A stretch of 27,052 nt of DNA from IMG/VR virus record IMGVR_UViG_3300045256_000094. One strand, written 5' to 3'. The notes under the pieces are model-generated. The model saw only the letters and a list, made by a program, of their open reading frames with translations, was not told the DNA's origin and did not search any database. Every line of letters begins with the position of its first letter. The first letter of the stretch is position 1. Below are positions 11,638 through 25,382 of the stretch, one piece after another. This DNA comes from a virus. The translations under genes were made by a program, and so were the position numbers.

Positions 11638-12399
11638 ATGATCCACGCTAAAAAGGACAACTACCAGGGGGTCAACTGGTATCACTGCTTCAAGTTCCCG
11701 GACGGCTCCGAAACGCACGGGCACGACCGGCCGACTGCGGAGAAGGTGTCAGCCATTTTCGACCCAATCGACATCAAAGGCAAGACCGTTCTGGACATTT
11801 GCGCCTGGGACGGCTACTACTCGTTTGAGGCGGAAAGGCGTGGGGCTAAAGCGGTTGTGGCGAACGACCACTACTGTTGGAGCGGACCGGGTTGGGGGAC
11901 AAAGCGTGGATTTGAACTGGCCCGTGAACTTTACGGGTCGAAAGTCCTCGACTACGAATGCGAACTGATGAAAATCGACCCGAACAACGTCGGTCAGTTC
12001 GACGTTGTTCTCTTCCTCGGCGTCCTGTACCACCGGATCGAGGGCTTCCGCTGCCTGGAAATCTGCACCAACGTCTGCAAGGACATGCTGGTGGTGGAAA
12101 CCCTCACGCTCAACAGCGAAGATTGTGTTATTGAATACCTGCCGTCGGACCACATCTACGGGGATTACACCAACCAGATAGCCCCGACAACCAGGGCTGT
12201 TGTAGAATGTCTGTTAAGGTGTAACTTCCGAATGGTGTCATACAACCACTACGCTAAGGTCAGCGAGAGGTATAACAGAACTGTCTTCCACGCCCGGCTC
12301 AGTAAAGCAGTGTTGGTCGAACACGAACCCCCGGCACCGTTTCGGCAATTTGCAGGAGTCTGTCAGACGCCACGTTTATTTTGGCAGCATCGGCCTTAA
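11638..12399 (+). CDS. Class I SAM-dependent methyltransferase, CmoB/DUF1698-like
   Basis: GVNWYHCFKFPDGSETHG, VLDICAWDGYYS (motif I), FDVVLFLGVLYHR and LVVETLTLNSEDCVIEY align by eye to E. coli CmoB: WRKGPF...GVNIDTEW, ILDVGCGSGYH, GVLYHR, LVLETLVIDGDENTVL. Confidence 0.65.
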   Translation: MIHAKKDNYQGVNWYHCFKFPDGSETHGHDRPTAEKVSAIFDPIDIKGKTVLDICAWDGYYSFEAERRGAKAVVANDHYCWSGPGWGTKRGFELARELYGSKVLDYECELMKIDPNNVGQFDVVLFLGVLYHRIEGFRCLEICTNVCKDMLVVETLTLNSEDCVIEYLPSDHIYGDYTNQIAPTTRAVVECLLRCNFRMVSYNHYAKVSERYNRTVFHARLSKAVLVEHEPPAPFRQFAGVCQTPRLFWQHRP

Positions 12400-13441
12400 T
12401 GCGGTCCACCGAAATCTGAACCAATTCCGGTTTGTCGAAGTCTAGGTCAAGCTTCCGCAGGAAGTTCACCTTGATCGGGTACTTCGTGGACGCATCCTCG
12501 ATCTTCTTCTGGGCGTCACGGAACAACTCAACGTTGAAGTTATCCAATGTGATGAGCGGCACGTTGCAGGTCGGATTGAACTCCACTTCATCCATACCCA
12601 ACTCAGCCGCAATCCTCACCATATCAACAACCTCGTGAATGTTAAGTAGGTTGATGTTATTGTGAACACGAGCCACCTGACTCGGGGTACGCTTCTCGTT
12701 ATACTTCTTAGCCTGTTGCATGATCTTCTCAAACAACGGCAAGCGGCGGATCAGCTTATACGTCTCCGGTGTGGCGGCGTCCAGCGAGAACGTGAGACTA
12801 CTCTTGGGGTATTCCAAGAACCGCTCAATGCGGCTATCGGTTAACACCGTGCCGTTGGTGGTTGTACTGATGGCAACCCGGTCCTTGCGTTCATCTATAC
12901 CGAGCCACGTTGCGATTTGGAATAGCTTGTCTTTCCAGAACGCCTCGGCTACTCCCTGGATGTGAACAAGATTGAAATTGAAGGCATAGGGCTTCAACCG
13001 CCTGCACACTTCCTGCAACTTATCCTTCTGGCTCTCGAATCGTAGATTACGTTCGCACATCACGCAAGCCGGGTTCTTCTCCGTCGGCTTGAGTCCGCCG
13101 ATGTTGCAGTGTTGAGACGGCAAGTCAATCTCCAACTCCGTCGGTACGGCCCGGACATTGTATTCTTTAGCTTGTGCCGCAAGTTCGTCCGCCTTCATGT
13201 GTGCGAACGGGCAGCACTTCAACATAGAGCATGTCGAGTGCAACTTGTTATTCAAAGTATCCCGGCGAATCTCATTAGCCAAATCACTGTTCCAGATATC
13301 CTCGAATGTATCCTTTAACAGATTACCCAGACACTTACGTTCTTGGAAGCAGCAAAAAGTTACATCGCCTTCGCAGGTTACTTTAATGCGGGTAAACGGC
13401 AAGGCACAGAACGTCTTCACCGGGTAGTATTCATGAATCAT
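12299..13441 (-). CDS. Atypical radical-SAM enzyme, paralog 1
   Basis: N-terminal Cys-rich module: FCALPF...TCEGDVTFCCFQ...CLGN...IWNSDLA...C...CCPF. Core motifs: HCNIGGLKPTEKNPACVMC (Cx13Cx2C), GVAEPFWK (glycine-rich), ISTTTNGT, FSLDAATPETY. Confidence 0.7.
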   Translation of the reverse strand: MIHEYYPVKTFCALPFTRIKVTCEGDVTFCCFQERKCLGNLLKDTFEDIWNSDLANEIRRDTLNNKLHSTCSMLKCCPFAHMKADELAAQAKEYNVRAVPTELEIDLPSQHCNIGGLKPTEKNPACVMCERNLRFESQKDKLQEVCRRLKPYAFNFNLVHIQGVAEAFWKDKLFQIATWLGIDERKDRVAISTTTNGTVLTDSRIERFLEYPKSSLTFSLDAATPETYKLIRRLPLFEKIMQQAKKYNEKRTPSQVARVHNNINLLNIHEVVDMVRIAAELGMDEVEFNPTCNVPLITLDNFNVELFRDAQKKIEDASTKYPIKVNFLRKLDLDFDKPELVQISVDRIKADAAKINVASDRLLQIAETVPGVRVRPTLLY

Positions 13442-14555
13442 TCTTCACCTTGATCTGTAGTTGTACGAGTTCTTGCGACGGGGCAAGTTCCTGGCCGACT
13501 GGCGGCGGCAGCCGATCAAACGGCTTGGAGTAGAACAGCGGCACCCCCAACTGCTGTGCCCGGTGCATCGCCTTCTCCGAGTTCTCTTTGAATATCTTGA
13601 GGTTGCGTGGGTTCAACAACAAGTCATTCATATGAACCCGGCCACACTGGTCATGAGTCGGCAACATGATGACTTTATCTACTCGCAGTTCAGCCGCCGT
13701 CTCCACCATCTTTACCATCTCGTGTACGTTAATCAGGTTGATGTTATTGTAGATGATAGCTTGGTGACGCTGCGAGCCGCCGTTGCGATCCCGGAGCATC
13801 ATGTAATATCTCATGTTCCTGACGACAAGGTTATAGGCGTCAATTCGCCTGATCTTCTGGTACGTCTCCGGGCTGCCTGCGTCCACCGAGAACTGCATGT
13901 CGGACTCCATTACCTCGTCGAAGTACCGCTCGATGATCTTCTCCGTGAGGCAGGTGACGTTGGTGTTCGTAGTGAAACGGATGTGGTGTTTGTGTTCGGC
14001 GAACCCCACGAGATCAAACACCCGGAACACGGCATCCTTCCAGAACGGTTCGGCCACCCCCAGCACGCACAGGTGCTTCAAGTACGGCATGAGCGGCTTC
14101 GCCTTCTCGCAGAGCGTGTCGGTGATCGGCGGCTGTTTGTGGAAGTCGTAGTTCCGGCAGCACATGATGCAGGCCGGGTTGTCGTCGCCTGGGTCTTCCC
14201 CGCCGATGTTGCAGTGGGTGTTGGGCAGGCAGATTTCCAGGTAAGTCGGGTAATCGTGGTTCTTGTAGCTGCGGAACTCCTCCGGCTCCAAGTCCTTCAC
14301 CAAGTACGGGCAGGTGTTCCAACTCTTGCAGACCGGGTGCATCTGGTTCTGGAGGGTCTGTGAGCGAATATCCTTAGCCAACTCACTGTTCCATAACTCC
14401 ATTACTGTCGTATCCCCGAGGATGTTCCCTAGCTGTGTAAGCTGGTAGCAACACATGGACACGTCGCCCCAGCCGTTGAGGATCAACTTGGTGAAGGGCA
14501 ACGAGCAGAAAGCCTTGTGTGTTCTTTCCGGGATTTCGGAAGTGCGATGGAGCAT
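13431..14555 (-). CDS. Atypical radical-SAM enzyme, paralog 2
   Basis: Same architecture as paralog 1: AFCSLPF...SMCCYQ...LGN; HCNIGGEDPGDDNPACIMCC; GVAEPFWK; TTNTNVT; FSVDAGSPETY. Overlaps paralog 1 by 11 nt. Confidence 0.7.
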   Translation of the reverse strand: MLHRTSEIPERTHKAFCSLPFTKLILNGWGDVSMCCYQLTQLGNILGDTTVMELWNSELAKDIRSQTLQNQMHPVCKSWNTCPYLVKDLEPEEFRSYKNHDYPTYLEICLPNTHCNIGGEDPGDDNPACIMCCRNYDFHKQPPITDTLCEKAKPLMPYLKHLCVLGVAEPFWKDAVFRVFDLVGFAEHKHHIRFTTNTNVTCLTEKIIERYFDEVMESDMQFSVDAGSPETYQKIRRIDAYNLVVRNMRYYMMLRDRNGGSQRHQAIIYNNINLINVHEMVKMVETAAELRVDKVIMLPTHDQCGRVHMNDLLLNPRNLKIFKENSEKAMHRAQQLGVPLFYSKPFDRLPPPVGQELAPSQELVQLQIKVKNDS

Positions 14556-14567
14556 AGAGGTATTTAC

Positions 14568-15299
14568 ATGGCCCCGAGGAAAAAGTTAACTAAGGAACAA
14601 TGGGCAGAGCGATTTGCCGACGCCAAGCACGGCCACGTCCTCTGGGACGGCTGGGCCTCCGACCCGTACAACCCCGAACACGCCTACACGTCGAGCCACC
14701 AGTTCTACAACCACGCCAAGCGGCACGGCTTCTTCAAAACCGGCAGCAGCGTCCTCGACCTGGGCTGCGGCAACGGCCGGGTGCCCATCGCCCTGACCGA
14801 GCATTACGTCAAGTACGTCGGGGTTGACCCGGTTCAAAAGAGTATCGACTTCTGCAAGAAGGCGTTCGCCGATTGGCCCGACTTCCAGTTCATCTTCATG
14901 GACATCAAGAACGAGTCGTTTAACCCGGAGGGGGCCATTGACCCCGCCGCCCTGACGTTGCCCTTCCCTGACGGCCACTTCGATAACGTAATCTGCTACT
15001 CCGTGTTCACACACCTACAGGAGATCACCGTCGCCACCCGGTACATCATTGAAATCCTGCGTGTACTGAAGGAAGGCGGCAAGCTGTTCACGTCCTGGTA
15101 TCGCTGCCCGCCCAACCCCCTCGACAAGTTCGTGGGCAGGACGGTGTTCTTGGAGCGTGACATCCTGAACCTGCTCCAAGACTTCTACTTCAACGAGACG
15201 TATGGCGGGACGACCCCGCAGTATTACGACCAGTGGGCATTGTTCTGTACGAAGGGAAAGCTGCAATCAGAGAGTGATCTGCACGAGTTGGTCAGCTAG
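14568..15299 (+). CDS. Class I SAM-dependent methyltransferase
   Basis: VLDLGCGNGRV (motif I), FDNVICYSVFTHL (motif II), LKEGGKL (motif III). Alternative starts lie at 14517 and 14547, both of which would overlap the divergent radical-SAM gene start. Confidence 0.7.
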   Translation: MAPRKKLTKEQWAERFADAKHGHVLWDGWASDPYNPEHAYTSSHQFYNHAKRHGFFKTGSSVLDLGCGNGRVPIALTEHYVKYVGVDPVQKSIDFCKKAFADWPDFQFIFMDIKNESFNPEGAIDPAALTLPFPDGHFDNVICYSVFTHLQEITVATRYIIEILRVLKEGGKLFTSWYRCPPNPLDKFVGRTVFLERDILNLLQDFYFNETYGGTTPQYYDQWALFCTKGKLQSESDLHELVS

Positions 15300-16310
15300 T
15301 CCCATGTCGAGCGGCCGGATGAAGTTGTACGGCACGTTCAACTTCTGACACTCGGCAATGATGTCCTGCTGGGCCTTTTTGAACAACCCGCAGTTCTGTT
15401 CGTTCACCAGGATCGGCGTGTTGAAGCCGTCCGTCGGATTGAACTCAATGTACTCCACGTTCGCCTTGTGGGCGATGCGCACCATCCCAACAACTTCGTG
15501 TACGTTGTGTATGTTGATGTTGTTGTGAATGCGGAGGAACTGGCGTGCCCTCACCCGTTCCTTCGAGAAGGCGTACAGGTTCTCCAGAATCTTGTCGAAC
15601 AGCGGCAGGATTCTGATCTTCTTGAACGTCTCCGGTGTGGCTGCGTCGATGGAGAAGTTCGTGATGCTCCGGGGCACCCGCCGCAGGTATTCCTCCCGGA
15701 CGTGTTTGTGGAACAGGGTGCCGTTGGTCGTCGTGCTGATCGTGATCTGGTGCTTGTACTTGTCGAATTCCAGAATGTCCAGCATCTCGAACAGCAGGTT
15801 CTTGTAGAACGGCTCGGCAATGCCCTGGATGTGAATCTGGTGCAGGTTCGGGATCACATGCTTGATCCGGGCCAGCACTTCCTTCAGGTGATCCTTCTCC
15901 GGCTTGAAGAACGGGGCGGACCGCTCGCACATGATGCAGGCCGGGTGTGCGGGGCCGGGGTTCTCCAGGCCGATGTTGCAGTGGGTGTTCGGCAGGTCGA
16001 TCTCAAGGAACGTCGGATACTCGTTGTAGATGACCTGGACGGGCGGGCCGGGGTTCTTCATCAAGGCAAACGGACACCCCGGCACCTTGCACTTCTTGTG
16101 CAACCTGCCTTCGAGGGTGTCCGTGCGGATGGCCTCGGCCTCTTCGCCGAACCAGATGTCATCGAACGGTTTTTCGAGAACGTTGCCGATGTAGGCGTCG
16201 GACTCTGCCGCCAGCGGGTCAACCCGCTGGAAGCAGCACATGGCACAGTTGCCCTCGGCTGTCACTCGAAGGCGGTTGAATGGGTACTGACAGAACGCTT
16301 GGACTTCCAT
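15267..16310 (-). CDS. Atypical radical-SAM enzyme, paralog 3
   Basis: AFCQYPF...AMCCFQ...IGN; HCNIGLENPGPAHPACIMC (Cx13Cx2C); GIAEPFYK; ISTTTNGT; FSIDAATPETF. Confidence 0.7.
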   Translation of the reverse strand: MEVQAFCQYPFNRLRVTAEGNCAMCCFQRVDPLAAESDAYIGNVLEKPFDDIWFGEEAEAIRTDTLEGRLHKKCKVPGCPFALMKNPGPPVQVIYNEYPTFLEIDLPNTHCNIGLENPGPAHPACIMCERSAPFFKPEKDHLKEVLARIKHVIPNLHQIHIQGIAEPFYKNLLFEMLDILEFDKYKHQITISTTTNGTLFHKHVREEYLRRVPRSITNFSIDAATPETFKKIRILPLFDKILENLYAFSKERVRARQFLRIHNNINIHNVHEVVGMVRIAHKANVEYIEFNPTDGFNTPILVNEQNCGLFKKAQQDIIAECQKLNVPYNFIRPLDMGLADQLVQITL

Positions 16311-16316
16311 GACCTA

Positions 16317-16973
16317 TTATAGATCGAGATCGAGATACTTCTGCTTCAGGAAACCGTAGTTCCGGTCCGCACAGATGCAGACGTACCGAGTCCCGTCCAG
16401 CGTGAAGTCGAAGTCCTTGTGGTAGTGGCCGAAGACGTAGAGCTTCGGGCGGTGGTGGCAGAACATGGCGTCGAGCATCTGGTTGGTCCGGGTCTTGATT
16501 AACGACTCGGAGTAGCCCATGCTCTTAGCGAACGCCGGATTCAGCCCCAGGGCTTGCAGGATGTGCAGCGGCCCCTCGTGCGACAGCAGGATGTCGGGCT
16601 TGTACTCGGCGTAGGCGGCGACGGCTTCGTTGCACCGCTCCATGCTCAGTTCTTCCTCTTCCCACCAGTCCACGCCGACGGAGCGGTACATGTGGTCGAT
16701 TGACCACGCACCCCGGACGAAGAACATCTTCTCCTTCAGTTCGGGAATATGCGTGATGGGACCGAAGTCACCCAGGCAGTAGGGCGACTGGTTGATCTCG
16801 TCGTAGTTGTCGTGGTTCCCGCCGAAGAAGCGGTGCCGAGCGAGATCGAGCTTGTACAGCCAGTTGTACCGGAAACCGTAGTCCCCGATCTGGATGGAGT
16901 AATCCGCCTCGCCCGCCAGTGTCAGATGGTGGTCGGCCTGCCCGTGGATGTCGCCGATCAGCCGGAGTTTCAC
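16317..16973 (-). CDS. Calcineurin-like metallophosphoesterase
   Basis: GDIHG, GNHD and GHYH motifs. Lies 6 nt downstream of radical-SAM paralog 3. Confidence 0.7.
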   Translation of the reverse strand: MKLRLIGDIHGQADHHLTLAGEADYSIQIGDYGFRYNWLYKLDLARHRFFGGNHDNYDEINQSPYCLGDFGPITHIPELKEKMFFVRGAWSIDHMYRSVGVDWWEEEELSMERCNEAVAAYAEYKPDILLSHEGPLHILQALGLNPAFAKSMGYSESLIKTRTNQMLDAMFCHHRPKLYVFGHYHKDFDFTLDGTRYVCICADRNYGFLKQKYLDLDL

Positions 16974-17542
16974 GCCTGCTCTCCCATGCCTTCGAGTTCA
17001 CGGAAGAAGTCGTCCGTGTCGAGTGATGCCGTACCCCTGTTGGACGGCCTGCGTGCGGCACCAGGACGCCGGGGCGTGTCACGCCCGGTAGCACACGAGT
17101 CTGGCACGCCCAGGTTCTTCAAGATGCCCTTGAAGTCGCCGTCACGTTTCAGTCCGTCTGTGTTGACTTCACTGCGGACAGTCGGCTCGAACAGGCCGAC
17201 GGCCTGGATGAAGCAACGCTTGCAGTATACTGTTTCCTGCACATCTGTCACTTCAATTTTCTCCCCCGGCTTGACTTCGGGGAAGTTGTTGCCGACCAGC
17301 CCGCCCCGGCAGTTCGGGTCGGCAACGTAGATGTTGCCGTGGACGACGAAGCCCTCTTCAGGCTTGTAGATCGGCTGGTCGCAGTGGTCACAGAGGTAAT
17401 ACTGGCAACGCCGCATCTTCTCTTTTTGCTTGAGAGTGCGCTTGATCTCGTTGAGAGATGCGTTGCTGTTTTCGGCCGGAAGCTTGACGGGCTTGGGTGC
17501 GGTGGCTTCCTTGAATGCCTTCGCTCGTGGGTCGTTCGACAT
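16970..17542 (-). CDS. Hypothetical protein with Cys pairs (putative zinc ribbon)
   Basis: 190 aa. CQYYLCDHCDQ...CKRC. ATGA overlap with the phosphoesterase gene. Confidence 0.55.
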   Translation of the reverse strand: MSNDPRAKAFKEATAPKPVKLPAENSNASLNEIKRTLKQKEKMRRCQYYLCDHCDQPIYKPEEGFVVHGNIYVADPNCRGGLVGNNFPEVKPGEKIEVTDVQETVYCKRCFIQAVGLFEPTVRSEVNTDGLKRDGDFKGILKNLGVPDSCATGRDTPRRPGAARRPSNRGTASLDTDDFFRELEGMGEQA

Positions 17543-17566
17543 CTTCGGCCTCCTTGCCGATCTTCC

Positions 17567-17854
17567 TCAATAGACAGAGATTAGGTTACACCTTTCCCCG
17601 TCCTCGGTCAAGCCGACGTGCGGCTTGCCCTTGATTTCCTTGCGTTCGATCAGGTACTCGGCTGCCAACTCGTCCAGCAGCACGTTCAGTTCGGCCAGTT
17701 CGATGCCCTCGATGGCCCGGCAGTCCCGGTGGTTGTTGGGGATGTCCAGCACCGTCTCGACACTGGCGAACTGTGCCCCGCCAGCGGCGTTGGCGACGGC
17801 TTGCAGGGCGGCGATCTGCCGCTCGTTCAGGTTCTCTCCGATGAACCGGCTCAT
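17567..17854 (-). CDS. Hypothetical protein (95 aa)
   Basis: Internal ATG (MSRFIGENL) chosen because it overlaps the upstream stop as ATGA. The longer N-terminal extension is Arg-rich junk. Confidence 0.45.
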   Translation of the reverse strand: MSRFIGENLNERQIAALQAVANAAGGAQFASVETVLDIPNNHRDCRAIEGIELAELNVLLDELAAEYLIERKEIKGKPHVGLTEDGERCNLISVY

Positions 17855-18270
17855 TTCTTCCCCTTCTTCTTGGAGTCGTCCTCTTCCTCTTCCACGAGCG
17901 GGGCGTTGGGGTCGATGCGGTAGCAGGTTTCCATCCGCTTCCGGTCCCAAACGATCACCACCCGTCCTTCCTCGAAGGCGGCGTTGTTGGCGATGTCCTT
18001 CGCATCGGCCAGCACGTCCGTCTCGTCGAAGCTCTTGTACTTGTTCTTCTCTTTCGCATCTTGCAGCGAGATGTCGAACTGCTTGCCGTCCCGCCGCCAC
18101 TCCTCGCCCGGAGGGTATTCCTTCTCCGGCGTCCGTGGCTTCTCTGGCTTGGCTTGTGGCTCTGCGGCCGGTTCTTCCGTAGCCGTGGCTGTCGGGGCGT
18201 CGTCCTCGTCGGCCATCCCAGGCAGAGGGATATCCAGGTCGAGCTTCTTCTTAGACTTGCCACGAGCCAT
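17851..18270 (-). CDS. Hypothetical acidic/lysine-rich protein
   Basis: 139 aa intact ORF. Confidence 0.5.
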   Translation of the reverse strand: MARGKSKKKLDLDIPLPGMADEDDAPTATATEEPAAEPQAKPEKPRTPEKEYPPGEEWRRDGKQFDISLQDAKEKNKYKSFDETDVLADAKDIANNAAFEEGRVVIVWDRKRMETCYRIDPNAPLVEEEEDDSKKKGKK

Positions 18271-18613
18271 CGGCGACTTCCTCCAACCCGGTTATGTCTT
18301 CATTGAAGAGATAGGTGGAAGCGGTCCGCCCGTCGGCCAGGGTGATTTCCTGTCTGCGGAAGAGGCCGGTGTCCACTGCCTCCACTTTATCAAGGATGGG
18401 CAGGATTGTAAAAGGGATTTCGTAGACTTCGCCGTGGACGCCTGGGCCAGTGGGGTCTTCCACCATGCCGGGGAACCAGTTGACCCGATATAAACGAAAA
18501 GCAGGCCCGGTATGGGCCTGCCCTTTGTACTCGGCACCGTTGTTCTGGAGATACTTGTTGAGCCTACCGCCTTGCTTTAAGGTGCCATAGCAGAAGAGGA
18601 GTGTTGTTTCCAT
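18251..18613 (-). CDS. Gamma-glutamyl cyclotransferase / AIG2-like family protein
   Basis: LFCYGTLKQGG...GEVYEI...LDKVE pattern typical of the GGCT/AIG2 fold. Confidence 0.6.
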   Translation of the reverse strand: METTLLFCYGTLKQGGRLNKYLQNNGAEYKGQAHTGPAFRLYRVNWFPGMVEDPTGPGVHGEVYEIPFTILPILDKVEAVDTGLFRRQEITLADGRTASTYLFNEDITGLEEVADGSWQV

Positions 18614-19152
18614 AATGACTCAGCCATCCTTAGCACGTCGGCATCGCTGTAGTCCGACTTCGCCTTATTGTAGATCACGCACACGATTCGACAGTTGTCC
18701 TTCGTGTAGCCCTTGCCGTTGTTCGCCCGGTCAATGGACGGTCGAAACGGCGTGTGAGCCACATTATCCTGTCTTTCGAGTAGCAAGTCAACTCCAGTCG
18801 CCTCGCACTTCATCGTCTTGAGCCGTGCTTCCAACCACTCTCTGTCCAGGTCGCACTCCAGCCCATTTGTCTTCGCCCGGTTCTTGGCGGCGGTGAGCAA
18901 GTTCGTGACCATGCCAGAGAATGTGGCGTTGTAGTCCTTGCGGTATGATCTGTCGTATGCCTTGTGCTTCTCGGTCTTCCGAAGCTCCTTCTGGTAAGAC
19001 GTGAAGTAATCGGCACGCTTGTTGTATTGGTTGTAGCCACCAGACTTTTTATACTCGTTGTAGCAGGGCTTACAACGGCTACCCGGCTTGCCCTTGCTTT
19101 GAGTGAACTGATCGAGCGGCTTTGGCTCTTGGCAGATAGAACATTTCTTCAT
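18577..19152 (-). CDS. HNH endonuclease with an N-terminal zinc ribbon
   Basis: CSICQ...CKPC at the N-terminus. C-terminal HNH-like block: AHTPFRPSIDRANNGKGYTKDNCRIVCVIYN. Confidence 0.6.
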   Translation of the reverse strand: MKKCSICQEPKPLDQFTQSKGKPGSRCKPCYNEYKKSGGYNQYNKRADYFTSYQKELRKTEKHKAYDRSYRKDYNATFSGMVTNLLTAAKNRAKTNGLECDLDREWLEARLKTMKCEATGVDLLLERQDNVAHTPFRPSIDRANNGKGYTKDNCRIVCVIYNKAKSDYSDADVLRMAESLWKQHSSSAMAP

Positions 19153-19197
19153 GTCCTATCTATGCGTGTATGGCGATTTCTCACACCATAAACGAAC

Positions 19198-19219
19198 ACG
19201 CCCCGGATAACCGGGGCGT
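19198..19219 (-). terminator. Terminator-like hairpin downstream of csrA
   Basis: Perfect 9 bp stem, ACGCCCCGG-ataa-CCGGGGCGT, followed on the minus strand by GTTCGTTTAT. Confidence 0.45.
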
Positions 19220-19232
19220 TGGGACAACAACA

Positions 19233-19439
19233 TCACATCGCCTTCCTTGTTGGCTGAGTCGCATCGGGAGCGGGGCGACCGCTCTTGATGGCCTCGTAGA
19301 CTTCCTCCCGGTGGACGGGCACGTCTTTCGGTGCCACGATGCCGAGGCGAACCTTGTCGCCCCGGATTTCCACGACGGTGATCTGGATGTTGTCGCCGAT
19401 GACGATGGACTCGTTCGGCTTCCTCGACAGTACCAGCAT
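19233..19439 (-). CDS. csrA: Carbon storage regulator CsrA
   Basis: [55 protein letters not shown] Shine-Dalgarno. The ORF upstream of this ATG is Arg-rich junk. Confidence 0.85.
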
Positions 19440-19495
19440 CGCAGGACTCCTTTCCAAGAGTCGGGTAGAGTGGGACGGGGAACACGCTTCCAGCC

Positions 19496-19530
19496 GAACC
19501 ATTTATACCCACCACTGGTCCGGGTGTCAA
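19496..19530 (-). promoter_or_regulatory. Near-consensus sigma70-type promoter for csrA
   Basis: On the minus strand: TTGACA (19530-19525), an exact 17 nt spacer, TATAAAT (19507-19501). The -35 element overlaps the clpX stop codon. Confidence 0.5.
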
Positions 19531-20786
19531 GCAGCTTTATTCAAAGGTTTGCTCTGTCCGCAGACCACGCCCTTGTCGATGACAAGGTGCTGGCCGCTCA
19601 GGTCCGGCAGGTCGAACATGATGTCGTTCATGAACGACTCGATCACCGCCTTGAGCGCCCGTGCCCCGGTGCCCTTCTCCTTTGCACGCTTTGCAATCTC
19701 ATCCACGGCGTCGTCCGTGAACTCCAGGTTCACCCCGTCCATCAGGGCGATCTTACGATATTGCTTCGTGAAGGCGTCACGAGGCTGGGTTAGGACGTTC
19801 TTCAGATCGTCCACGCTCAGTTCCCGGAGCGTCGTGACCACCGGCAGACGACCGACCAGTTCGGGGATCAGCCCGTACTGCTCCAGGTCATCCTGCGTGA
19901 CCTGGGCCAGCAGTTCGTTCCGTTCCTTGTGCTTGTCGGTATCCGGGACGTGGCTGGCCCCGAACCCGATCTGGCTCGTCTTCCCGATCCGCTTGCGGAT
20001 GATGTCTTCCAGGCCGACGAACGACCCGCCGCAGATGAACAGGATGTTGGTCGTGTCCACCGGGATGTACGTCTGCTCCGGGTGCTTCCGCCCGCCCTGG
20101 GGCGGCACGTTGGCCGTCGTCCCCTCGATCAGCTTGAGGAGGCTCTGTTGGACGCCCTCACCGGACACGTCACGGGTGAGACTGACGTTGCCGCCGGTTT
20201 TGCGGAGCTTGTCAATCTCGTCGATGTAAATGATGCCCCGCTGTGCCGCCTCGATGTCGAAGTTGGAGGCGTGGAGCAGCTTCAGGATCAGGTTCTCCAC
20301 GTCCTCGCCGACGTACCCGGCCTCGGTCAGAACCGTAGCGTCCCCAATCGCAAAAGGGACGTTCAGCTTCTCCGCAAGCGTCTTGGCGAGGAGAGTCTTG
20401 CCGCTGCCGGTCGGCCCGATCAGCAGCACGTTGGACTTCTCCAGCTTGACTTCCTTCAGTTCAGGGTCGTCAATGACAGTCGCCAGAGCGTCCATGATCC
20501 GCTTATAATGGTTGGTCACGGCGACCGACAGGTGCCGCTTCGGCCCCTCTTGACCAATGATAACCCGGTCCAGGTGGGCCATCATGTCCTTCGGAGTCGG
20601 CAACTTGCCCACCCGCTGTTCCCGAGTGCTGGCAGCGATCATCTCCCGTTCGAGGACGTTGGCGCAACGACCAATGCACTCGCCGCAGATCAGATTGTTG
20701 CCCACTTCCGAGCGGACCATCGCACCGACTTTGGTGCTAGGCTGCCCGCAAAAGCTGCACTTAGGAAAAGGCTTCTTAGTTGCCAT
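19527..20786 (-). CDS. clpX: ATP-dependent protease ATPase subunit ClpX
   Basis: N-terminal C4 zinc finger (CSFCGQ...CGEC), Walker A (GPTGSGKT) and a GYVG pore loop. 419 aa. AAGGAG Shine-Dalgarno. No clpP gene lies adjacent. Confidence 0.9.
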   Translation of the reverse strand: MATKKPFPKCSFCGQPSTKVGAMVRSEVGNNLICGECIGRCANVLEREMIAASTREQRVGKLPTPKDMMAHLDRVIIGQEGPKRHLSVAVTNHYKRIMDALATVIDDPELKEVKLEKSNVLLIGPTGSGKTLLAKTLAEKLNVPFAIGDATVLTEAGYVGEDVENLILKLLHASNFDIEAAQRGIIYIDEIDKLRKTGGNVSLTRDVSGEGVQQSLLKLIEGTTANVPPQGGRKHPEQTYIPVDTTNILFICGGSFVGLEDIIRKRIGKTSQIGFGASHVPDTDKHKERNELLAQVTQDDLEQYGLIPELVGRLPVVTTLRELSVDDLKNVLTQPRDAFTKQYRKIALMDGVNLEFTDDAVDEIAKRAKEKGTGARALKAVIESFMNDIMFDLPDLSGQHLVIDKGVVCGQSKPLNKAA

Positions 20787-20875
20787 GTTGTCTCCTTCTT
20801 GTGAGCGATCCCAACGTACTGCGGCTTCCTATCTTACAGCCGTACACCCCGAGGGTAAACGGCTTTTAACTGCCT

Positions 20876-21640
20876 TCACTGACGGTACTTACGTCGATAT
20901 TCCCGCATCTCAACTTGGACATCATTCAAAATGTCTAACGACTCTTGTGTGGGTGCGGGAACTCTGTAAACCTTTGGCAACGGGGGCATTCGGGCGATTT
21001 CTTGCTCGGCCCCCAACCACATGATGATCGACAGAACGATCAACCACCCCATGTACGGTGCGTTGACGTGGAAGAACGGTGCCCCGAGAGCGTACACGCC
21101 CAAAGCCACGGCTGCTACCCTAGTAACCCAGACGAAGGTGAGGGTCGAAAGACGCTCGTTTTTCGTCAAAGCCGTCAAAATGCTCCGGCCGATCTTCGAC
21201 CCGTCCAGCGGAAACACCGGGACGAGGTTGAACACCAGCATGATGAGGTTCAGGACGAACAGCGTGGCGAAGAAGTCGGCCAGATACCCGCCGTGTTCCC
21301 CGAGGAAGTACAACGGGAAGGCTAGAACGAAATTCACGAGCGGGCCACAGGCAATGATCCAGAATTCCTCCCACGGCGACTGCTTCCGGTCGTCCACCCA
21401 GGCCAGCCCTCCGAACAAGTGCAGGGTGATAGAATCGACCCGCAGGCCAAAGTGCCGGGCGGCGAAGCAGTGACCGAGTTCGTGCAGCAGCACGATCCCG
21501 AACATCACGACCATCACCGGAAGTAGTTTGTAATTGAGCGAGGCTTGGATCGCCAAGAATATCCACCAACTCCAGTGGATATGGATGGGAATGCCGGAAA
21601 TCTTACCGATGTTGATGTTCATGCGTGTCATCCCTGACAT
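20876..21640 (-). CDS. M50-family (site-2 protease-like) membrane zinc metalloprotease
   Basis: HELGH (HExxH) and NLVPVFPLDGSKI (LDG motif), with several hydrophobic segments. The start could alternatively be at 21622. Confidence 0.7.
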   Translation of the reverse strand: MSGMTRMNINIGKISGIPIHIHWSWWIFLAIQASLNYKLLPVMVVMFGIVLLHELGHCFAARHFGLRVDSITLHLFGGLAWVDDRKQSPWEEFWIIACGPLVNFVLAFPLYFLGEHGGYLADFFATLFVLNLIMLVFNLVPVFPLDGSKIGRSILTALTKNERLSTLTFVWVTRVAAVALGVYALGAPFFHVNAPYMGWLIVLSIIMWLGAEQEIARMPPLPKVYRVPAPTQESLDILNDVQVEMREYRRKYRQ

Positions 21641-22631
21641 CCACTCTGCGGTTCTTAAGGTAGTCTGCCCACCTGAGCCGCATGTACTCGTGGTTCATAG
21701 CGAACGTCTCCCTGACGTTCACTTCTCCCTCGCCCGCCACTTCGTTGATCGTCTTGTTCTCAAAGTGGTGAACGAGCAGCAGGTGCAACGCATAGATGTC
21801 GTGCCCGGCCTCCAGCAATCGTAGTGAAAAGTCCGAGTCTTCGCAATAGGCGAAACGCAACTGCTTGTTGAAAAGACCGTAACGCTCGTAGGTCGCCCGC
21901 TCGATGCACATACACCAGCCGCAAACGTAGTCGATTTTCCCTCCGAAAGCCGCCCTGCCGCCCGACGCATTCTCGTCCAGCAGACTCCCCAAGTACCCGA
22001 CGCACTTGGTATTGGGGTTCTGCTGGAGGTAGCCCAGCATGGCCTCGCTCCAGCCCTTGTGTACCTTTGTATCCGAATTCAGCAGGATCAGGTACTCGCC
22101 TTTACCGAATGAAGCCAGTTGGTTGTTCGGCTCGTTGAACCCCATGTTCTGCTCGGACCGGCACCACTCCAGCTTGCCCTCCAGCTTTACCTTCATCTCG
22201 TCGAGGTAGTCCTGCATCTCCTGATTGGACCCGTTGTCCCAGATGTAGATGGTGTAGTTCGTGGTGTTGGCGACGACCGACTCCAGGCACATCTTCAGGT
22301 ACGGCAGTTGGTTACGCACCACGATCAGGATGTCCTTCGAGGCGTCCTTCGCCATGTTGGCGTAGGTGAGTTCTTTCAGTACGGCATCTCGGTTCTGGGC
22401 GAAGTGGTTCTCCGTCAGTTCCTTAATGCGGTTCTGCTTGATCTGGTGCCAGACCGCCTGGGAACACTCCTCGCTACAGATCGGCTGATTGACGTTCAGG
22501 TCACGCCACGGTGTCGAGGCGGAACATACGAAGCAGGGGGCGTTGATCGAGACGGGCAGGTAAGTCGAGCCGTTGAAGTGGAACTGATCCTTCATCGGCT
22601 TGGCCGTCGGGTAGCGTGCGTCGAATTTCAT
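21603..22631 (-). CDS. Family-2-like glycosyltransferase with an N-terminal Cys-containing extension
   Basis: ILIVVRNQLPYLKMCLESV...YIWDNGS...ILLNSDT, the GT-A DxD-type pattern. The first 100 aa carry CFVC...CSEEC. Confidence 0.65.
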   Translation of the reverse strand: MKFDARYPTAKPMKDQFHFNGSTYLPVSINAPCFVCSASTPWRDLNVNQPICSEECSQAVWHQIKQNRIKELTENHFAQNRDAVLKELTYANMAKDASKDILIVVRNQLPYLKMCLESVVANTTNYTIYIWDNGSNQEMQDYLDEMKVKLEGKLEWCRSEQNMGFNEPNNQLASFGKGEYLILLNSDTKVHKGWSEAMLGYLQQNPNTKCVGYLGSLLDENASGGRAAFGGKIDYVCGWCMCIERATYERYGLFNKQLRFAYCEDSDFSLRLLEAGHDIYALHLLLVHHFENKTINEVAGEGEVNVRETFAMNHEYMRLRWADYLKNRRVDVRDDTHEHQHR

Positions 22632-23422
22632 ACACCATCATTATAGTGAAACGCCACGCTTTCACGATCCCGAACAATCGCCTCGTGCAGCCCCACGCTC
22701 TTGAACGTGTCTTCGAGCAGCCGCCTGTTGGCTAACAGGTCGGAGGGTTTCATGACCACCTTGTCCAAGACAAGCTCGTGGTGGGCGAGGTTGTACACGT
22801 TCTTCCCGTGGTAGCGGTAGATGTACTGGTGCCCCTGCGGCATCTGCACCACCGTGCCCAGCTTCACCAACTTCTGCAACACGTTCAGGTCTTCCTCCTT
22901 GTGCTGCTGGCCTGTGTACTCTGGGTACAGCAGGGAGTTGAAGTGCCTATAGGCGTCCTTACGGAACATGATCGCCCCGCACAGCATAGTCGCCCAGAAT
23001 ATCTCTTCTTTGCTCCAGTCGATCCAGTAGAGTGACTTCGTATGCTCGAAGTATTTCAAGTGTTGGCTATATGCCGAGGCTACGGCGTTCGGCATGTACA
23101 TCATGTGTGTGGCGATACGGGCCGGATGGTGAAAGTCGTCATCGTCCCACTGGCAGATGAACTCTCCCCGAGCTATCCCGACAGATAGGTTTCTCAGTGA
23201 AGCCAACGAGATCGTAGGCGACACTTCCACCATGACGATAGACGGGTCGTTCAGTGCGTCTACATACTGCCTCAACGTCTTATTGGACTCAGGCTGGCCC
23301 TGAGCAACAATAACGAGTTCTTTGTTTGGGTATGTTTGATTGAAATAGTTACAGATCGCCTGTGCGGCTAGTTCCGCCCGGTCTTTCGTAACCATTACAC
23401 AACTAACTAGCTTCGTGTTCAA
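22628..23422 (-). CDS. GT-A fold glycosyltransferase, paralog A
   Basis: SCVMVTKDR...ELVIV...ICQWDDDDFHHP. ATGA-type overlap with the upstream GT2 gene. Confidence 0.6.
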   Translation of the reverse strand: MNTKLVSCVMVTKDRAELAAQAICNYFNQTYPNKELVIVAQGQPESNKTLRQYVDALNDPSIVMVEVSPTISLASLRNLSVGIARGEFICQWDDDDFHHPARIATHMMYMPNAVASAYSQHLKYFEHTKSLYWIDWSKEEIFWATMLCGAIMFRKDAYRHFNSLLYPEYTGQQHKEEDLNVLQKLVKLGTVVQMPQGHQYIYRYHGKNVYNLAHHELVLDKVVMKPSDLLANRRLLEDTFKSVGLHEAIVRDRESVAFHYNDGV

Positions 23423-24215
23423 ATGCCACCCCCTCTCTACTCATAACGTTTACTTTGCCAAACTTGAAATAGCCTAACGCCGTCTCGATGTCCGCACGGC
23501 GTCGAAGGATGTATTCGAGCCAGTTCGAGCGGAGGTTGGAGATGTCGGAGTGGTGCGTATAGTCGTACACCTGATTGCAGCCGTGTTGTGAATAGACGTG
23601 CATCCACCCGATATCGTTAATCTGTAATATGTTCTTCTTCGGGACATGCCGCACAAGATCGTTGAGTAATACAGAGTCCTCACCGGCCCGGCAGAACTTA
23701 CCACGCTCCGGGTAACGGAACGGCAGGTGTCGGTAGATCATGATCGTGCCGGGGATCAATGTATTATGATACTGGCCGTCGCTGCCATAGGTCTTCCAGT
23801 CATCCCAATACATTCTGGAAGTATTGAAGTAGTAGTGTAACTGGTTGGTTAAGAAGGAGGCAGCGGCGTCGGCCCGTCTCATCCTCGAATACTGTGCGAA
23901 GAGGCGTGTCGGGTAGGCGAAGTCGTCGTCGTCCCACTGGCAGATGATGTCGCCGCTGGCGGCATAGATCGAGATGTTACGCAATTCGCCGAGGGTGTAA
24001 CTTCCCTTTAGCCAAATCGTCCGTGCGGGAACGCCGTTCAGTTCGGCTTCGAGTTGGTGTTGATACTCGACCGGCCCCTCGTTGACGATGACGAGTTCTT
24101 TGTTGGGGTAGGTCTGATCGGCGAAGCAACGGATGCTTCGCTTGGCGAACTCCAGCCGCCGGGCGGCTGTGACCATGAGGCAGGATATCTTTGGTAAAGG
24201 CTCGACGTTGAACAT
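23403..24215 (-). CDS. GT-A fold glycosyltransferase, paralog B
   Basis: ISCLMVTAARR...ELVIVNEG...ICQWDDDDFAYP. It clearly resembles paralog A. Confidence 0.6.
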   Translation of the reverse strand: MFNVEPLPKISCLMVTAARRLEFAKRSIRCFADQTYPNKELVIVNEGPVEYQHQLEAELNGVPARTIWLKGSYTLGELRNISIYAASGDIICQWDDDDFAYPTRLFAQYSRMRRADAAASFLTNQLHYYFNTSRMYWDDWKTYGSDGQYHNTLIPGTIMIYRHLPFRYPERGKFCRAGEDSVLLNDLVRHVPKKNILQINDIGWMHVYSQHGCNQVYDYTHHSDISNLRSNWLEYILRRRADIETALGYFKFGKVNVMSREGVAFEHEAS

Positions 24216-25188: not shown

Positions 25189-25382
25189 CGTGATCCTCTC
25201 GTTTCGGCCTGAATTTGGCGTCCACCCGGTTCGGCCGCAGCCGGGTGAACTTCGGTGATCGAGAACGGTCCGCTGCACCGATTATAAACCGGAGTGCGGC
25301 GTTGTAAAGGGTGCCTCTTATAAATTTCTCGCCCCAAGACTCTCATAGGGGGTCAGAGACTACACAACGAATGGAGGCAACT

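Follow-up and report, generated by a model that had tools for sequence, protein, structure and literature searches.

The window analyzed here, a 27,052-nucleotide stretch of viral DNA (IMG/VR record IMGVR_UViG_3300045256_000094), contains what may be a phage-encoded, strain-variable module for glycan assembly and tailoring, a candidate function that we regard as about evenly balanced in probability and whose assignment is guilt by association throughout. Comparison of related loci shows that the module has a fixed core, consisting of two radical-SAM genes (rSAM-C and rSAM-B) and three GT2 glycosyltransferase genes, and an accessory set, consisting of a third radical-SAM gene (rSAM-A), two methyltransferase genes (MT9 and MT11), and a phosphoesterase gene. 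An ORF check, together with Pfam, NCBIfam, and PHROGs profile searches of the 35 ORFs in the window, recovered all nine of the genes named in the initial annotation, with the positions and domains given there, and the view that this combination matches no described pathway stands. The nine genes are listed here with the ClpX and M50 genes that lie among them:

11638–12399, plus strand: MT9, accessory class I SAM methyltransferase of the short DUF1698 type, 253 aa
12299–13441, minus strand: rSAM-A, accessory paralog, 380 aa; architecture as in rSAM-C plus a C-terminal extension of ~35 aa
13431–14555, minus strand: rSAM-B, second core paralog, 374 aa; architecture as in rSAM-C
14517–15299, plus strand: MT11, accessory class I SAM methyltransferase; flanked by rSAM-C and rSAM-B, which are on the other strand
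15267–16310, minus strand: rSAM-C, core paralog, 347 aa; N-terminal twitch/SPASM domain at residues 7–79
16317–16973, minus strand: calcineurin-type metallophosphoesterase (Metallophos 27.2 bits; phrog_1649 99 bits)
19527–20786, minus strand: ClpX (AAA_2 104 bits, plus a ClpX zinc finger)
20876–21640, minus strand: M50 membrane metalloprotease (Peptidase_M50 83 bits)
21603–22631, minus strand: GT2-a, soluble GT-A enzyme with an N-terminal four-Cys zinc-ribbon extension (Glycos_transf_2 54.6 bits)
22628–23422, minus strand: GT2-b, soluble GT-A enzyme, paralog of GT2-c (Glycos_transf_2 40.7 bits; DDDD motif)
23403–24215, minus strand: GT2-c, soluble GT-A enzyme, first gene of the GT operon (Glycos_transf_2 37.4 bits; DDDD motif)

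Radical-SAM paralogs with an N-terminal auxiliary domain

The description of the three radical-SAM proteins as atypical paralogs held up. rSAM-B and rSAM-A are 37% and 45% identical to rSAM-C, and by this measure the three are true paralogs. All of them score 35–44 bits against the Pfam SPASM profile (PF13186, cut-off 21.5 bits; rSAM-A 43.5 bits, rSAM-B 35.2 bits). Against Radical_SAM (PF04055, cut-off 29.5 bits), rSAM-A and rSAM-C score 41.1 and 30.9 bits, and rSAM-B falls slightly below the cut-off at 26.7 bits; the Methyltransf_9 and Glycos_transf_2 matches expected in the initial annotation were also obtained. Profile score, a partial TIM-barrel fold, and a three-Cys motif place the proteins in the radical SAM superfamily, with an unusual Cys spacing. 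In rSAM-C, the radical-SAM core spans residues 124–290 and the cluster motif is C111-X13-C125-X2-C128, that is, CX13CX2C rather than the canonical CX3CX2C. This spacing is unchanged across 37 homologues, and 37/37 aligned sequences retain every cluster cysteine and the GxxE SAM motif. CX12-13CX2C is the motif in most of the 124 nearest cluster representatives, and more distant relatives with an N-terminal twitch domain (e.g., P0242 and P0247) have the canonical motif. Known radical-SAM members, some QueE enzymes among them, tolerate expanded SAM-cluster loops.

The auxiliary Fe-S domain of each paralog, and of the family as a whole, precedes the radical-SAM core instead of occupying the C-terminal position of SPASM/twitch domains. 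Its cysteines C7, C25, C26, C74, and C79 are invariant, and their pattern (CX12GX4C...CX4C) resembles a one-cluster twitch domain more than a full seven-Cys SPASM domain. The conserved residues show that the paralogs keep one predicted SAM-binding [4Fe-4S] site and the cysteines needed for a single auxiliary cluster.

Membership of a well-characterized family, which the initial annotation had named as evidence that would count against it, was not found: the family of rSAM-A, rSAM-B, and rSAM-C is uncharacterized and stands as a separate group of ~124 clusters (50% identity), with two to five paralogs per phage genome. The best NCBIfam match for all three proteins, NF033640 (N_Twi_rSAM), is also uncharacterized and likewise has a twitch domain followed by a radical-SAM core, but the phage proteins lie outside it (72.8, 71.5, and 78.7 bits versus a cut-off of 170; ~22% identity). 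The only solved structure found by sequence was the twitch domain of BtrN (E 6e-4). A sulfotransferase-like domain, recognized by eye in the sequence (0 Pfam matches), is among the fusions within the family. Across relatives, conservation of rSAM-C (62–71%) exceeds that of ClpX (55–64%), which argues for an important function.

Peptide maturation is the best-known role of SPASM and twitch enzymes, which counts against a glycan substrate. If their substrate were a ribosomal peptide or a protein of phage or host, the paralogs might introduce crosslinks, epimerize residues, or carry out formylglycine-type oxidation; M50 and ClpX (with a C39 peptidase in relatives) could then process the product, and the GT2 enzymes and methyltransferases could decorate it in the manner of glycocins or mycofactocin. 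We consider this improbable. Pfam and NCBIfam searches detected no RRE or leader-binding domain in the rSAM proteins, which begin directly with the twitch domain, and no conserved small ORF accompanies the rSAM genes across loci, the array being tightly packed in the window. The mycofact_rSAM profile scored only 19–23 bits on these proteins (cut-off 265), which places them outside the mycofactocin family, and no MftA-like ORF was seen in the window. The adjacent precursor gene and RRE that characterize RiPP maturases were missing from the loci examined; a precursor could still be encoded at a distance or in trans.

Glycosyltransferases, methyltransferases, and the intervening block

All three GT2 proteins exceed the Glycos_transf_2 cut-off (PF00535, 23.3 bits), and this score, an acidic DxD-type motif, and a GT-A fold (the last from the AF2 model of GT2-a) assign them to glycosyltransferase family 2. 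No transmembrane segment was found in GT2-c, which is 38–49% identical to its counterparts in relatives (GT2-b, ~37–44%). The N-terminal 120 aa of GT2-b resemble WcaA at 57 bits, far under the cut-off. GT2-a has 337 homologues, a family size similar to that of rSAM-C (282 homologues), and the best 120 of the 337 are 42–91% identical to it; the top-120 lists for GT2-a and rSAM-C have 20 longest-contig sizes of at least 10 kb in common. D132 and the N185-S186-D187 region of GT2-a are invariant.

The best PDB fold matches of the GT2-a model (pLDDT 90) are polypeptide GalNAc-transferases, followed by polysaccharide synthases, and its best NCBIfam match is MftF. The predicted resemblance to GalNAc-transferases and the MftF match would both suit the maturation of a peptide or protein, but the MftF score (44.5 bits) is far under the cut-off of 280. 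Peptide or protein maturation would also suit the constant position of M50 and ClpX, which lie between the GT and rSAM blocks in conserved synteny, and the C39 peptidase found in two relatives (L010 and L024), which is absent from the window.

The ends of the GT2 genes overlap each other and M50 by 4–38 nt (38 nt for GT2-a and M50), and M50 and ClpX appear to be co-transcribed with the GT2 genes. Pattern matching alone identified a promoter-like site at 25308–25281 and, after ClpX, a strong hairpin followed by a T-run at 19219–19198. The intervening block also holds a GGACT gene, an HNH/EndoVII homing endonuclease gene, and genes for two function-unassigned proteins, so that the GT operon and the rSAM array lie ~5 kb apart. 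This gap and the terminator-like hairpin count against a single glycan module. The metallophosphoesterase gene lies 7 nt upstream of rSAM-C, and the place of its product in the pathway is uncertain.

The MT9 gene and rSAM-A converge and share 101 nt at their 3′ ends. MT9 scores 37 bits against Methyltransf_9 and 60.2 bits against TIGR04290, whose cut-off of 300 leaves it outside that family. The initial annotation called this enzyme CmoB-like and took it as a hint of a nucleic-acid substrate, a suggestion that failed. Against the CmoB profiles TIGR00452 and NF011650, MT9 scores 54.5 and 55.7 bits (cut-offs 209–275), and it covers just profile positions ~115–280, full-length CmoB being ~320 aa. 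Its identification as the tRNA U34 carboxymethyltransferase CmoB is not supported, given this sub-threshold, partial match and its relatives in polysaccharide loci: both of the two bacterial neighborhoods read are of the O-antigen/EPS type. MT9 is a recent bacterial import; it has only two close homologues (85–87% identical), and the next relatives (~44%) are bacterial methyltransferases of 220–250 aa. MT11 scores 61.5 bits against Methyltransf_11 and 58 bits against Methyltransf_25 (Pfam), and it is probably translated from the ATG at 14547 or 14568.

It had also been proposed that the cassette makes either a radical-tailored, methylated oligosaccharide, which fits our results, or a sugar-bearing hypermodification of DNA or RNA, for which the window holds no hallmark gene of DNA modification. 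Under the latter proposal, a modified base would receive sugars from the GT2 enzymes and be tailored by the rSAM enzymes and methyltransferases. Phages are indeed known to add sugars to hydroxymethylated bases, and some thymidine hypermodification pathways involve radical-SAM enzymes; genes of nucleotide metabolism (a PRPP synthetase, an NDT-like/Nudix fusion, and HD) lie near the module, and its variability between strains is typical of anti-restriction DNA modifications. However, none of the window's 35 ORFs encodes a hydroxymethylase or ThyA homologue, a base kinase (5-HMUDK), DpdA/TGT, or a known DNA glycosyltransferase, and no base-activating or DNA-glycosyltransferase gene was noticed among the partly annotated ORFs within 10 kb of the module in relatives. 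The GT2 genes match no PHROG family, the bacterial relatives occupy loci for exported polysaccharides, and we know of no nucleic-acid substrates for sulfo- and carbamoyltransferases of the families found in related phages. Taken with the failure of the CmoB hint, these observations make hypermodification very improbable.

Conserved order and a variable slot in related loci

The relatives of the window's genes point to an uncultivated lineage of probable huge phages, in agreement with the phage-like context noted initially. The same block recurs as a syntenic backbone in this uncultivated clade, with contigs of up to ~690 kb; IMG/VR viral contigs of 177–459 kb account for four syntenic relatives, and the best GenBank-phage matches of ClpX, RNA ligase, and the NDT-Nudix fusion are to Bacillus phage G and uncultured phages of 485–642 kb. 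Pfam and PHROGs gave no matches to capsid, terminase, tail, or other structural phage profiles within the window, and no copies turned up when 185,579 GTDB species genomes were scanned by pattern.

The order PRPPs, GT2c, GT2b, GT2a, (M50), ClpX, rSAM-C, variable slot, rSAM-B, HD is shared by ~19 distinct loci that span a GC content of 0.31 to 0.57. In nearly all related loci, an rSAM-B orthologue (47–64% identity) directly precedes the HD gene. Neighborhood conservation, named initially as a check, applies to rSAM-C, rSAM-B, and the GT2 trio, and not to the other genes of the cassette: the type-A rSAM clade occurs in only a subset of related loci, the metallophosphoesterase in about half, and MT9 and MT11 are each missing from most. 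A single invariant cassette of 12.6 kb is not supported, both for this reason and because ClpX, M50, GGACT, and the HNH endonuclease split the GT operon from the rSAM array.

Depending on the phage, the variable slot holds extra rSAM paralogs and methyl-, sulfo-, or carbamoyltransferases, and transferases of types that decorate hydroxyls or amines occupy it in 12 of the ~19 loci. The carbamoyltransferases are of the NodU/CmcH type (Carbam_trans_C, 160–165 bits); among the sulfotransferases, that of L003 alone exceeds the Pfam cut-off, and two others are weak and sub-threshold. The methyltransferases are MT9-like (in L022, L052, and L053) or MT11-like (a counterpart 45% identical to MT11 in L034, absent from other related loci), and some loci carry a weak, sub-threshold GT1-like fragment. 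An accessory rSAM clade, type D, adjoins a slot transferase in 6/6 cases.

Because the whole 25 kb region from PRPPs through RNA ligase is syntenic, co-occurrence may reflect common descent only. The module could accordingly comprise two unrelated neighboring functions joined solely by backbone synteny, with a GT2-M50-ClpX operon for, e.g., host-envelope or protein glycosylation or host takeover, and an rSAM array that acts with its transferases in a separate non-glycan pathway, e.g., for a small molecule or cofactor. The unrelated genes in the 5 kb gap, the promoter-like and terminator-like elements that flank the GT-to-ClpX unit, the uninformative clade-wide linkage, and the lack of conservation of the phosphoesterase and methyltransferases are all compatible with such a division. 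We nevertheless think it unlikely, because the slot transferases are of carbohydrate-decorating types and five independent non-phage contexts place members of the rSAM family directly beside GT genes. GT-like ORFs also lie next to rSAM-C in three phage loci (L010, L038, and L045), as weak, sub-threshold, or motif-only matches.

Outside phages, polysaccharide loci that carry GTs and ABC exporters are home to rSAM-family members and to the MT9 relatives whose neighborhoods were read. The bacterial rSAM-family members do not lie in RiPP loci, which also argues against peptide maturation. One rSAM-family member accompanies GT4, GT4+GT2, MBOAT, acyltransferase, GT2, and ABC-2 exporter genes (L008), another accompanies UDP-galactopyranose mutase, GT92, and methyltransferase genes (L011), and a third lies amid five GTs (L070). 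On a Methylomagnum plasmid (L069), a protein named by PGAP as a “twitch domain-containing radical SAM protein” is encoded among three GTs, a polyprenyl synthetase, UbiA, and an ABC transporter. In L043, L044, and L046, the rSAM gene starts right at the end of a GT2 gene or overlaps it.

Proposed pathway and comparison with known systems

For the proposed glycan module, we envisage that the three soluble GT-A enzymes would use nucleotide sugars to assemble a short oligosaccharide in the cytoplasm. By analogy with BtrN-type enzymes, the rSAM paralogs could use a 5′-deoxyadenosyl radical to take a C-H hydrogen from the sugar and so oxidize, epimerize, or otherwise rearrange sugar units. The phage-specific group transferases would afterwards cap hydroxyl or amino groups, with the two methyltransferases serving here and sulfotransferases or NodU-type carbamoyltransferases in relatives. 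The module encodes no primase, flippase, or exporter, so the acceptor would most likely be either a cytoplasmic protein of phage or host or a lipid carrier of the host.

A UDP-sugar dehydrogenase-family gene had been placed at the right edge of the window. The homologue (UGDH) is present, its ORF is cut by the window edge, and it lacks the C-terminal UDP-binding domain; no such gene was found adjoining the module in relatives. The window holds no complete nucleotide-sugar pathway, which, like the missing UGDH domain, counts against the glycan reading.

Among the closest known systems are the BtrN-type twitch enzymes, which include the 2-deoxy-scyllo-inosamine dehydrogenase BtrN and NeoN-like aminoglycoside epimerases. 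Like BtrN, which acts on a sugar (an aminocyclitol), the phage proteins combine a radical-SAM TIM-barrel core with one auxiliary-cluster domain of pattern CX12GX4C...C...C and occur in a carbohydrate-related genomic context. They differ from it in the N-terminal position of the auxiliary domain (a circular permutation), in the CX13CX2C loop (CX3CX2C in BtrN-type enzymes), in their negligible identity beyond the twitch domain, and in occurring as two to five paralogs per phage genome.

Phage DNA glucosylation in T4 and thymidine hypermodification share with the module phage-encoded sugar transfer, strain variability, and occasional radical-SAM involvement. Those systems need a hydroxymethylase or kinase handle that is absent here, and no sequence matches to their enzymes were found; the T4 alpha- and beta-glucosyltransferases are GT-B enzymes of other families.

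The capsid-glycan gene sets of chloroviruses and mimiviruses are virus-encoded glycosylation machineries. Virus-encoded machinery is also reported for mycobacteriophage virions (Freeman et al., 2023; PMC10527164). The module resembles these sets in its soluble GT-A enzymes and its methyltransferases, putatively for sugars, which would act in the cytoplasm without host secretory machinery, and in a glycan gene content that differs by lineage. To our knowledge, no radical-SAM tailoring enzymes, sulfotransferases, or carbamoyltransferases have been described in any of the three systems.

Nod factors receive methyl, carbamoyl, and sulfate groups from NodS, NodU, and NodH, and ABC-transporter-dependent O-antigens carry a terminal modification. 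As in these systems, methyl-, carbamoyl-, and sulfotransferases vary here between strains around a sugar backbone that would be made by GT2 enzymes. Unlike them, the phage locus has rSAM paralogs as its conserved core and lacks an exporter, a lipid-carrier primase, and acyl chain enzymes. A further likeness to the ABC-transporter-dependent O-antigens is that relatives of both MT9 and the rSAM proteins lie in Wzm/Wzt-type loci.

Gene content and origin of the window

Listing and translation of the ORFs, followed by Pfam, NCBIfam, and PHROGs scans, recovered every gene that the initial annotation had named, each at the position assigned to it.

Genes of the radical-SAM and glycosyltransferase blocks and their surroundings
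11638-12399, strand opposite to the radical-SAM genes: MT9, Methyltransf_9-like class I methyltransferase
12299-13441, minus: rSAM-A, N-terminal SPASM/twitch region and radical-SAM core
13431-14555, minus: rSAM-B, same architecture
14517-15299, strand opposite to the radical-SAM genes: MT11, Methyltransf_11-like class I methyltransferase
15267-16310, minus: rSAM-C, same architecture as rSAM-A
16317-16973: calcineurin-type phosphoesterase, 7 nt upstream of rSAM-C
18577-19152, minus: HNH/endonuclease VII-type homing endonuclease (phrog_3322, 102 bits)
21603-24215: three glycosyltransferase family 2 (GT2) genes, overlapping one another and the M50 gene by 4-38 nt
24520-25278, minus: Ala/Pro/Lys-rich protein with a long histone-H1-like low-complexity center
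25546-26577, minus: PRPP-synthetase-family gene, directly upstream of the GT2 genes
26594-27052, minus: UDP-glucose/GDP-mannose dehydrogenase homolog, continuing past the right window edge

The overlaps among the GT2 genes (GT2-a, GT2-b, and GT2-c, encoding soluble GT-A enzymes) and M50 suggest that they form a single translationally coupled operon. A membrane segment was predicted for the M50 protein only, and for none of the radical-SAM, methyltransferase, phosphoesterase, or GT2 proteins. The interval between the GT2 and radical-SAM blocks encodes two proteins of unknown function, a GGACT-family protein, the endonuclease, ClpX, and the M50 protein. The endonuclease gene lies between ClpX and GGACT, overlaps the start of GGACT by 37 nt, and is followed directly after its stop codon by a strong hairpin (18525-18497); because only one relative (L054) has a homolog at the same position, the gene looks like a mobile insertion.

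The PRPP-synthetase-family gene is kept across the clade at 40-57% identity; its product may be a true PRPP synthase or an ADP-ribose pyrophosphokinase like those with which phages reconstitute NAD. The Ala/Pro/Lys-rich protein, encoded between PRPP synthetase and GT2-c directly after a promoter-like site, ends in a conserved domain; L001 has an ORF at the corresponding position with 30% identity. The dehydrogenase ORF ends about 45 residues past its catalytic Cys (GFGGKCFSKD motif) and therefore lacks the C-terminal UDP-binding domain; no such homolog was found adjoining the module in relatives. PHROGs gave no match for the GT2 genes, rSAM-A, or ten flanking ORFs, and searches of the window found no C39 peptidase, PARP, sulfotransferase, or carbamoyltransferase homolog and no match to a capsid, terminase, or tail profile. 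An ORF at 2490-3407 was considered as kin of DxD-motif ORFs in the relatives and rejected. GC content is 0.51-0.52 at 12001-14000 (rSAM-A/rSAM-B) and 23001-24000 (GT2-c/GT2-b), against 0.57-0.64 around them, and these genes may be of different origin or age. A full-length SmpB (PF01668, 182 bits) is encoded at 6852-7307 on the minus strand, and relatives L020 and L026 encode SmpB as well; no tmRNA or tRNA gene accompanies it in the window, where Rfam and ARAGORN detected no RNA genes.

Among GenBank/INPHARED phages, neither the window DNA nor rSAM-C (by tblastn) had a match, and GT2-a had only weak ones (24-27% identity). In metagenomes, rSAM-C has 282 homologs (62-93% identity among the 120 listed), many of them on very large contigs of up to 618-693 kb, and four relatives are IMG/VR viral contigs of 177-459 kb. 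The best GenBank-phage matches of ClpX, the RNA ligase, and a protein resembling a nucleoside 2-deoxyribosyltransferase/Nudix fusion were to Bacillus phage G (497 kb) and uncultured phages of 485-642 kb, none of which carries the radical-SAM or GT2-a genes. No copy turned up in a pattern scan of 185,579 GTDB species genomes, in which the single match (L007) proved false: it is an alanine racemase that contains the same peptide, PTYLEIDLP. Because of these large contigs, viral relatives, and phage G-type neighbors, and the absence of a GTDB copy, we conclude that the window is likely to come from an uncultivated lineage of huge phages, in keeping with the phage-like context given in the initial annotation.

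The fusion-like protein (8377-9573, minus strand) has an N-terminal nucleoside 2-deoxyribosyltransferase-like domain and a C-terminal Nudix region recognized by eye without Pfam confirmation. It matches gp334 of phage G at 43.5% identity over 94% of its length and the 485 kb uncultured phage LR745208 at 41.5%, and is possibly a nucleotide- or signal-degrading anti-defense enzyme.

A conserved core and a variable slot

We mapped the ORFs of about 25 related loci on the window proteins and found a gene order common to about 19 distinct loci, whose GC contents range from 0.31 to 0.57. The order is PRPP synthetase, GT2-c, GT2-b, GT2-a, (M50), ClpX, (GGACT), (g16970, of unknown function), (metallophosphoesterase), rSAM-C, a variable slot, rSAM-B, HD, and, further on, RNA ligase. 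The most conserved gene of the region is rSAM-C (62-71% across related loci, compared with 55-64% for ClpX and 43-51% for GT2-a); as it exceeds even ClpX, its function is probably central to this phage lineage. GT2-a has 337 homologs, and the 120 listed are 42-91% identical; the top-120 lists of GT2-a and rSAM-C have in common 20 longest-contig sizes of at least 10 kb. The interval from rSAM-C to rSAM-B/HD is hypervariable between loci.

Content of the variable slot
Empty: five loci
Extra radical-SAM paralog only: two loci
NodU/CmcH carbamoyltransferases (Carbam_trans_C, 160-165 bits): L005, L006, L016, L038/45, L040
Sulfotransferases: L003, L004/24, L010
MT9-like methyltransferases: window, L022, L052, L053
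MT11-like methyltransferases: window, L034

The Sulfotransfer_3 Pfam cut-off was passed by L003 alone; the L004 protein fell below it, and the L010 protein passed only Sulfotransfer_2 (26.3 bits, cut-off 22). L010 also has a weak GT1-like fragment, under the cut-off. A neighbor-joining tree of 58 radical-SAM ORFs resolved five types, core types C and B and accessory types A, D, and E, of which the window has A, B, and C. Type D adjoins a group transferase in six of six cases, which suggests that radical-SAM enzymes and transferases occur in pairs.

From the shared synteny and the variability of the slot, the three GT2 genes, rSAM-C, and rSAM-B thus constitute a fixed core, and rSAM-A, MT9, MT11, and the phosphoesterase (found in roughly half of the related loci) are accessory. 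The GT2 and radical-SAM blocks are 5 kb apart, and the GT-to-ClpX unit is flanked by the best promoter-like site of the region (25308-25281, 11/12 matches) and by a strong hairpin with a T-run (19219-19198); both are no more than pattern matches, and shuffled sequences have at least as many terminator-like sites overall. This layout would suit two unlinked functions joined by nothing but backbone synteny, an explanation that we regard as unlikely.

The HD_4 (RelA/SpoT-type) hydrolase ORF of the window (11252-11581, minus strand) has 109 aa compared with 194-208 aa in relatives, and its alignment covers only residues ~18-103 of their proteins; it may reflect a frameshift, or a truncation beside the inserted MT9 gene. 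A PARP-domain protein is encoded downstream of RNA ligase in L010 (18162-19919, with a faint WGR match), L020, L024, L026, L028, and L054, and a C39 peptidase downstream of HD in L010 and L024.

The radical-SAM family and its relatives in glycan loci

In rSAM-A, rSAM-B, and rSAM-C, the SPASM/twitch region (35-44 bits, cut-off 21.5) precedes the radical-SAM core. The proteins are paralogs (rSAM-B and rSAM-A are 37% and 45% identical to rSAM-C) with the SAM-cluster motif C-X13-C-X2-C. Across 37 family members there is no variation in the three cluster cysteines, in five N-terminal cysteines (C7, C25, C26, C74, and C79), or in the G163/E166 SAM-binding motif. C307 is almost invariant in type C and missing from types A and B, a hint at chemical differences among the paralogs; C26 and C307 are candidate H-atom donors.

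When 1.84 billion representative proteins were searched with a profile, 124 clusters were returned at E below 1e-30, most with CX12-13CX2C; remoter matches were ordinary radical-SAM-SPASM proteins, including multi-radical-SAM fusions and one fusion to GT4 domains. The best named family, NF033640 ("twitch domain-containing radical SAM protein"), is uncharacterized, and the three proteins score 72-79 bits against its cut-off of 170. The sole solved structure matched by sequence was the twitch domain of BtrN (E 6e-4), whose four cluster ligands align with C7, C25/C26, C74, and C79 of the family. From this match and alignment, we conclude that the family is a circularly permuted twitch enzyme of the BtrN kind whose cluster loop is expanded. 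A BFVD fold search returned only generic phage radical-SAM-SPASM proteins (13-18% identity), and an analogy with mycofactocin was rejected on scores under thresholds. No Pfam domain was found in the N- or C-terminal fusion partners of family members; by eye, these include a repeated "GWAWD" domain, a sulfotransferase-like domain, and a nucleotidyltransferase-like domain. Distant relatives (P0234, P0235, and P0239) include giant polypeptides of 1431-1927 aa; in the two scanned, three and four radical-SAM domains with SPASM units follow one another in tandem, and one of the two carries a B12-binding domain as well.

Outside phages, family members lie in glycan loci in five independent contexts.

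Contexts of radical-SAM family members outside phages
L008: CofD, nucleotidyltransferase, GT4, GT4+GT2 fusion, second radical-SAM gene, GDSL esterase, MBOAT, acyltransferase, GT2, ABC-2 exporter
L011: GT, UDP-galactopyranose mutase, methyltransferase, GT92
L043, L044, L046: GT2 gene end abutting or overlapping the radical-SAM gene start
Methylomagnum plasmid: three GTs, polyprenyl synthetase, UbiA, ABC transporter
Manganitrophus plasmid: five GTs, alginate-lyase-family protein, kinases, ABC transporter

The L011 radical-SAM protein is fused to a domain that appears sulfotransferase-like by eye. A different phage-like contig (L049) combines a type-A radical-SAM gene with an FkbM methyltransferase and an HldE-like sugar kinase/nucleotidyltransferase; the contexts of L012, L013, and P0134 were uninformative.

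MT9 had been called CmoB-like, and a nucleic-acid substrate hinted at on that account, but its score of 54-56 bits is far below the CmoB cut-offs (209-275), and we rejected this identity. Its close homologs are only two, at 85-87% identity, from near-identical phages; beyond these, identity falls to about 44%, against thousands of bacterial methyltransferases of 220-250 aa. Both bacterial relatives sampled lie in polysaccharide loci with GT4 genes, and in the Sphingomonas locus these are joined by a Wzm/Wzt-type transporter, Wza, and GDP-sugar enzymes. From this drop in identity and these contexts, we conclude that MT9 is a recently imported glycan-type methyltransferase.

A candidate glycan-tailoring pathway

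BtrN-type enzymes dehydrogenate or epimerize sugars. From the observed gene set, paralogy, retained cluster ligands, conserved core, variable slot, and association of relatives with glycan loci, we propose, with about an even chance of being right, that the module assembles and tailors a phage glycan. The three GT-A enzymes would build a short oligosaccharide in the cytoplasm; the twitch paralogs would apply 5'-deoxyadenosyl radical chemistry at sugar C-H bonds, by analogy dehydrogenation or epimerization with the auxiliary cluster as electron acceptor; and the slot transferases would cap hydroxyl or amino groups, with methyl in the window phage. No priming transferase, flippase, or exporter accompanies these genes, which favors an acceptor in the cytoplasm or a lipid carrier of the host. 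The GT2-a model (pLDDT 90) is slightly closer to polypeptide GalNAc-transferases (E 3e-14) than to polysaccharide synthases (~2e-12), a weak hint of a protein acceptor.

The initial annotation had offered a modified oligosaccharide or a hypermodification of DNA or RNA, and we favor the former. As for hypermodification, the CmoB hint fails, no base-activating enzyme or DNA-transferase family was detected among the 35 ORFs of the window, and these sulfo- and carbamoyltransferase families are not known to act on nucleic acids; we consider it very improbable.

Decoration that varies between phages, as proposed for the glycan, is expected for a structure under diversifying selection, and the slot looks like the mark that an arms race around some surface or recognition structure would leave. 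A broader and more tentative reading is that one widespread lineage of huge phages, with contigs of up to about 690 kb, makes its own strain-variable glycan bearing methyl, sulfate, or carbamoyl groups, with a hitherto unstudied family of permuted twitch enzymes with a CX13CX2C cluster loop as the conserved catalysts. The enzymes would carry out radical chemistry (epimerization, oxidation, or C-C/C-O rearrangement) on the sugars of oligosaccharides or nucleotide sugars themselves; their product would cover the virion or alter the surface of the infected cell; and such a system, with its new enzymology, would parallel in bacteriophages the glycosylation machinery of giant viruses.

Virus-encoded glycosylation is known from chlorovirus and mimivirus glycan genes, twitch radical-SAM enzymes acting on sugars from BtrN and its relatives, and sets of methyl, carbamoyl, and sulfate decorations from Nod factors. 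Mycobacteriophage virion glycosylation, as treated in PMC10527164, is also virus-encoded. We found no description in the literature of this radical-SAM family or module in phages, which bears out the initial claim that the genes match no described pathway. What appears to be new is the combination of permuted, expanded-loop twitch enzymes, in two to five paralogs, as the core of a huge-phage glycan module with a swappable slot. If the proposal is correct, radical-SAM sugar tailoring joins the short list of virus-encoded glycosylation systems, a function is defined for an uncharacterized family (~124 clusters at 50% identity) that also occurs in bacterial polysaccharide loci, and a hypervariable methyl, sulfo, and carbamoyl decoration slot is exposed in huge phages. 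Compact, soluble enzymes in a natural paralog series are also attractive for enzymology and glyco-engineering.

At the left edge of the window (8-1762, minus strand), a 584-aa protein without a Pfam or PHROG match has a short collagen-like GxxGxxG stretch and Gly/Ser/Thr-rich repeats. It is a possible fiber protein and, conceivably, a glycosylation target; one segment shares 80% identity with a terminal ORF of L016.
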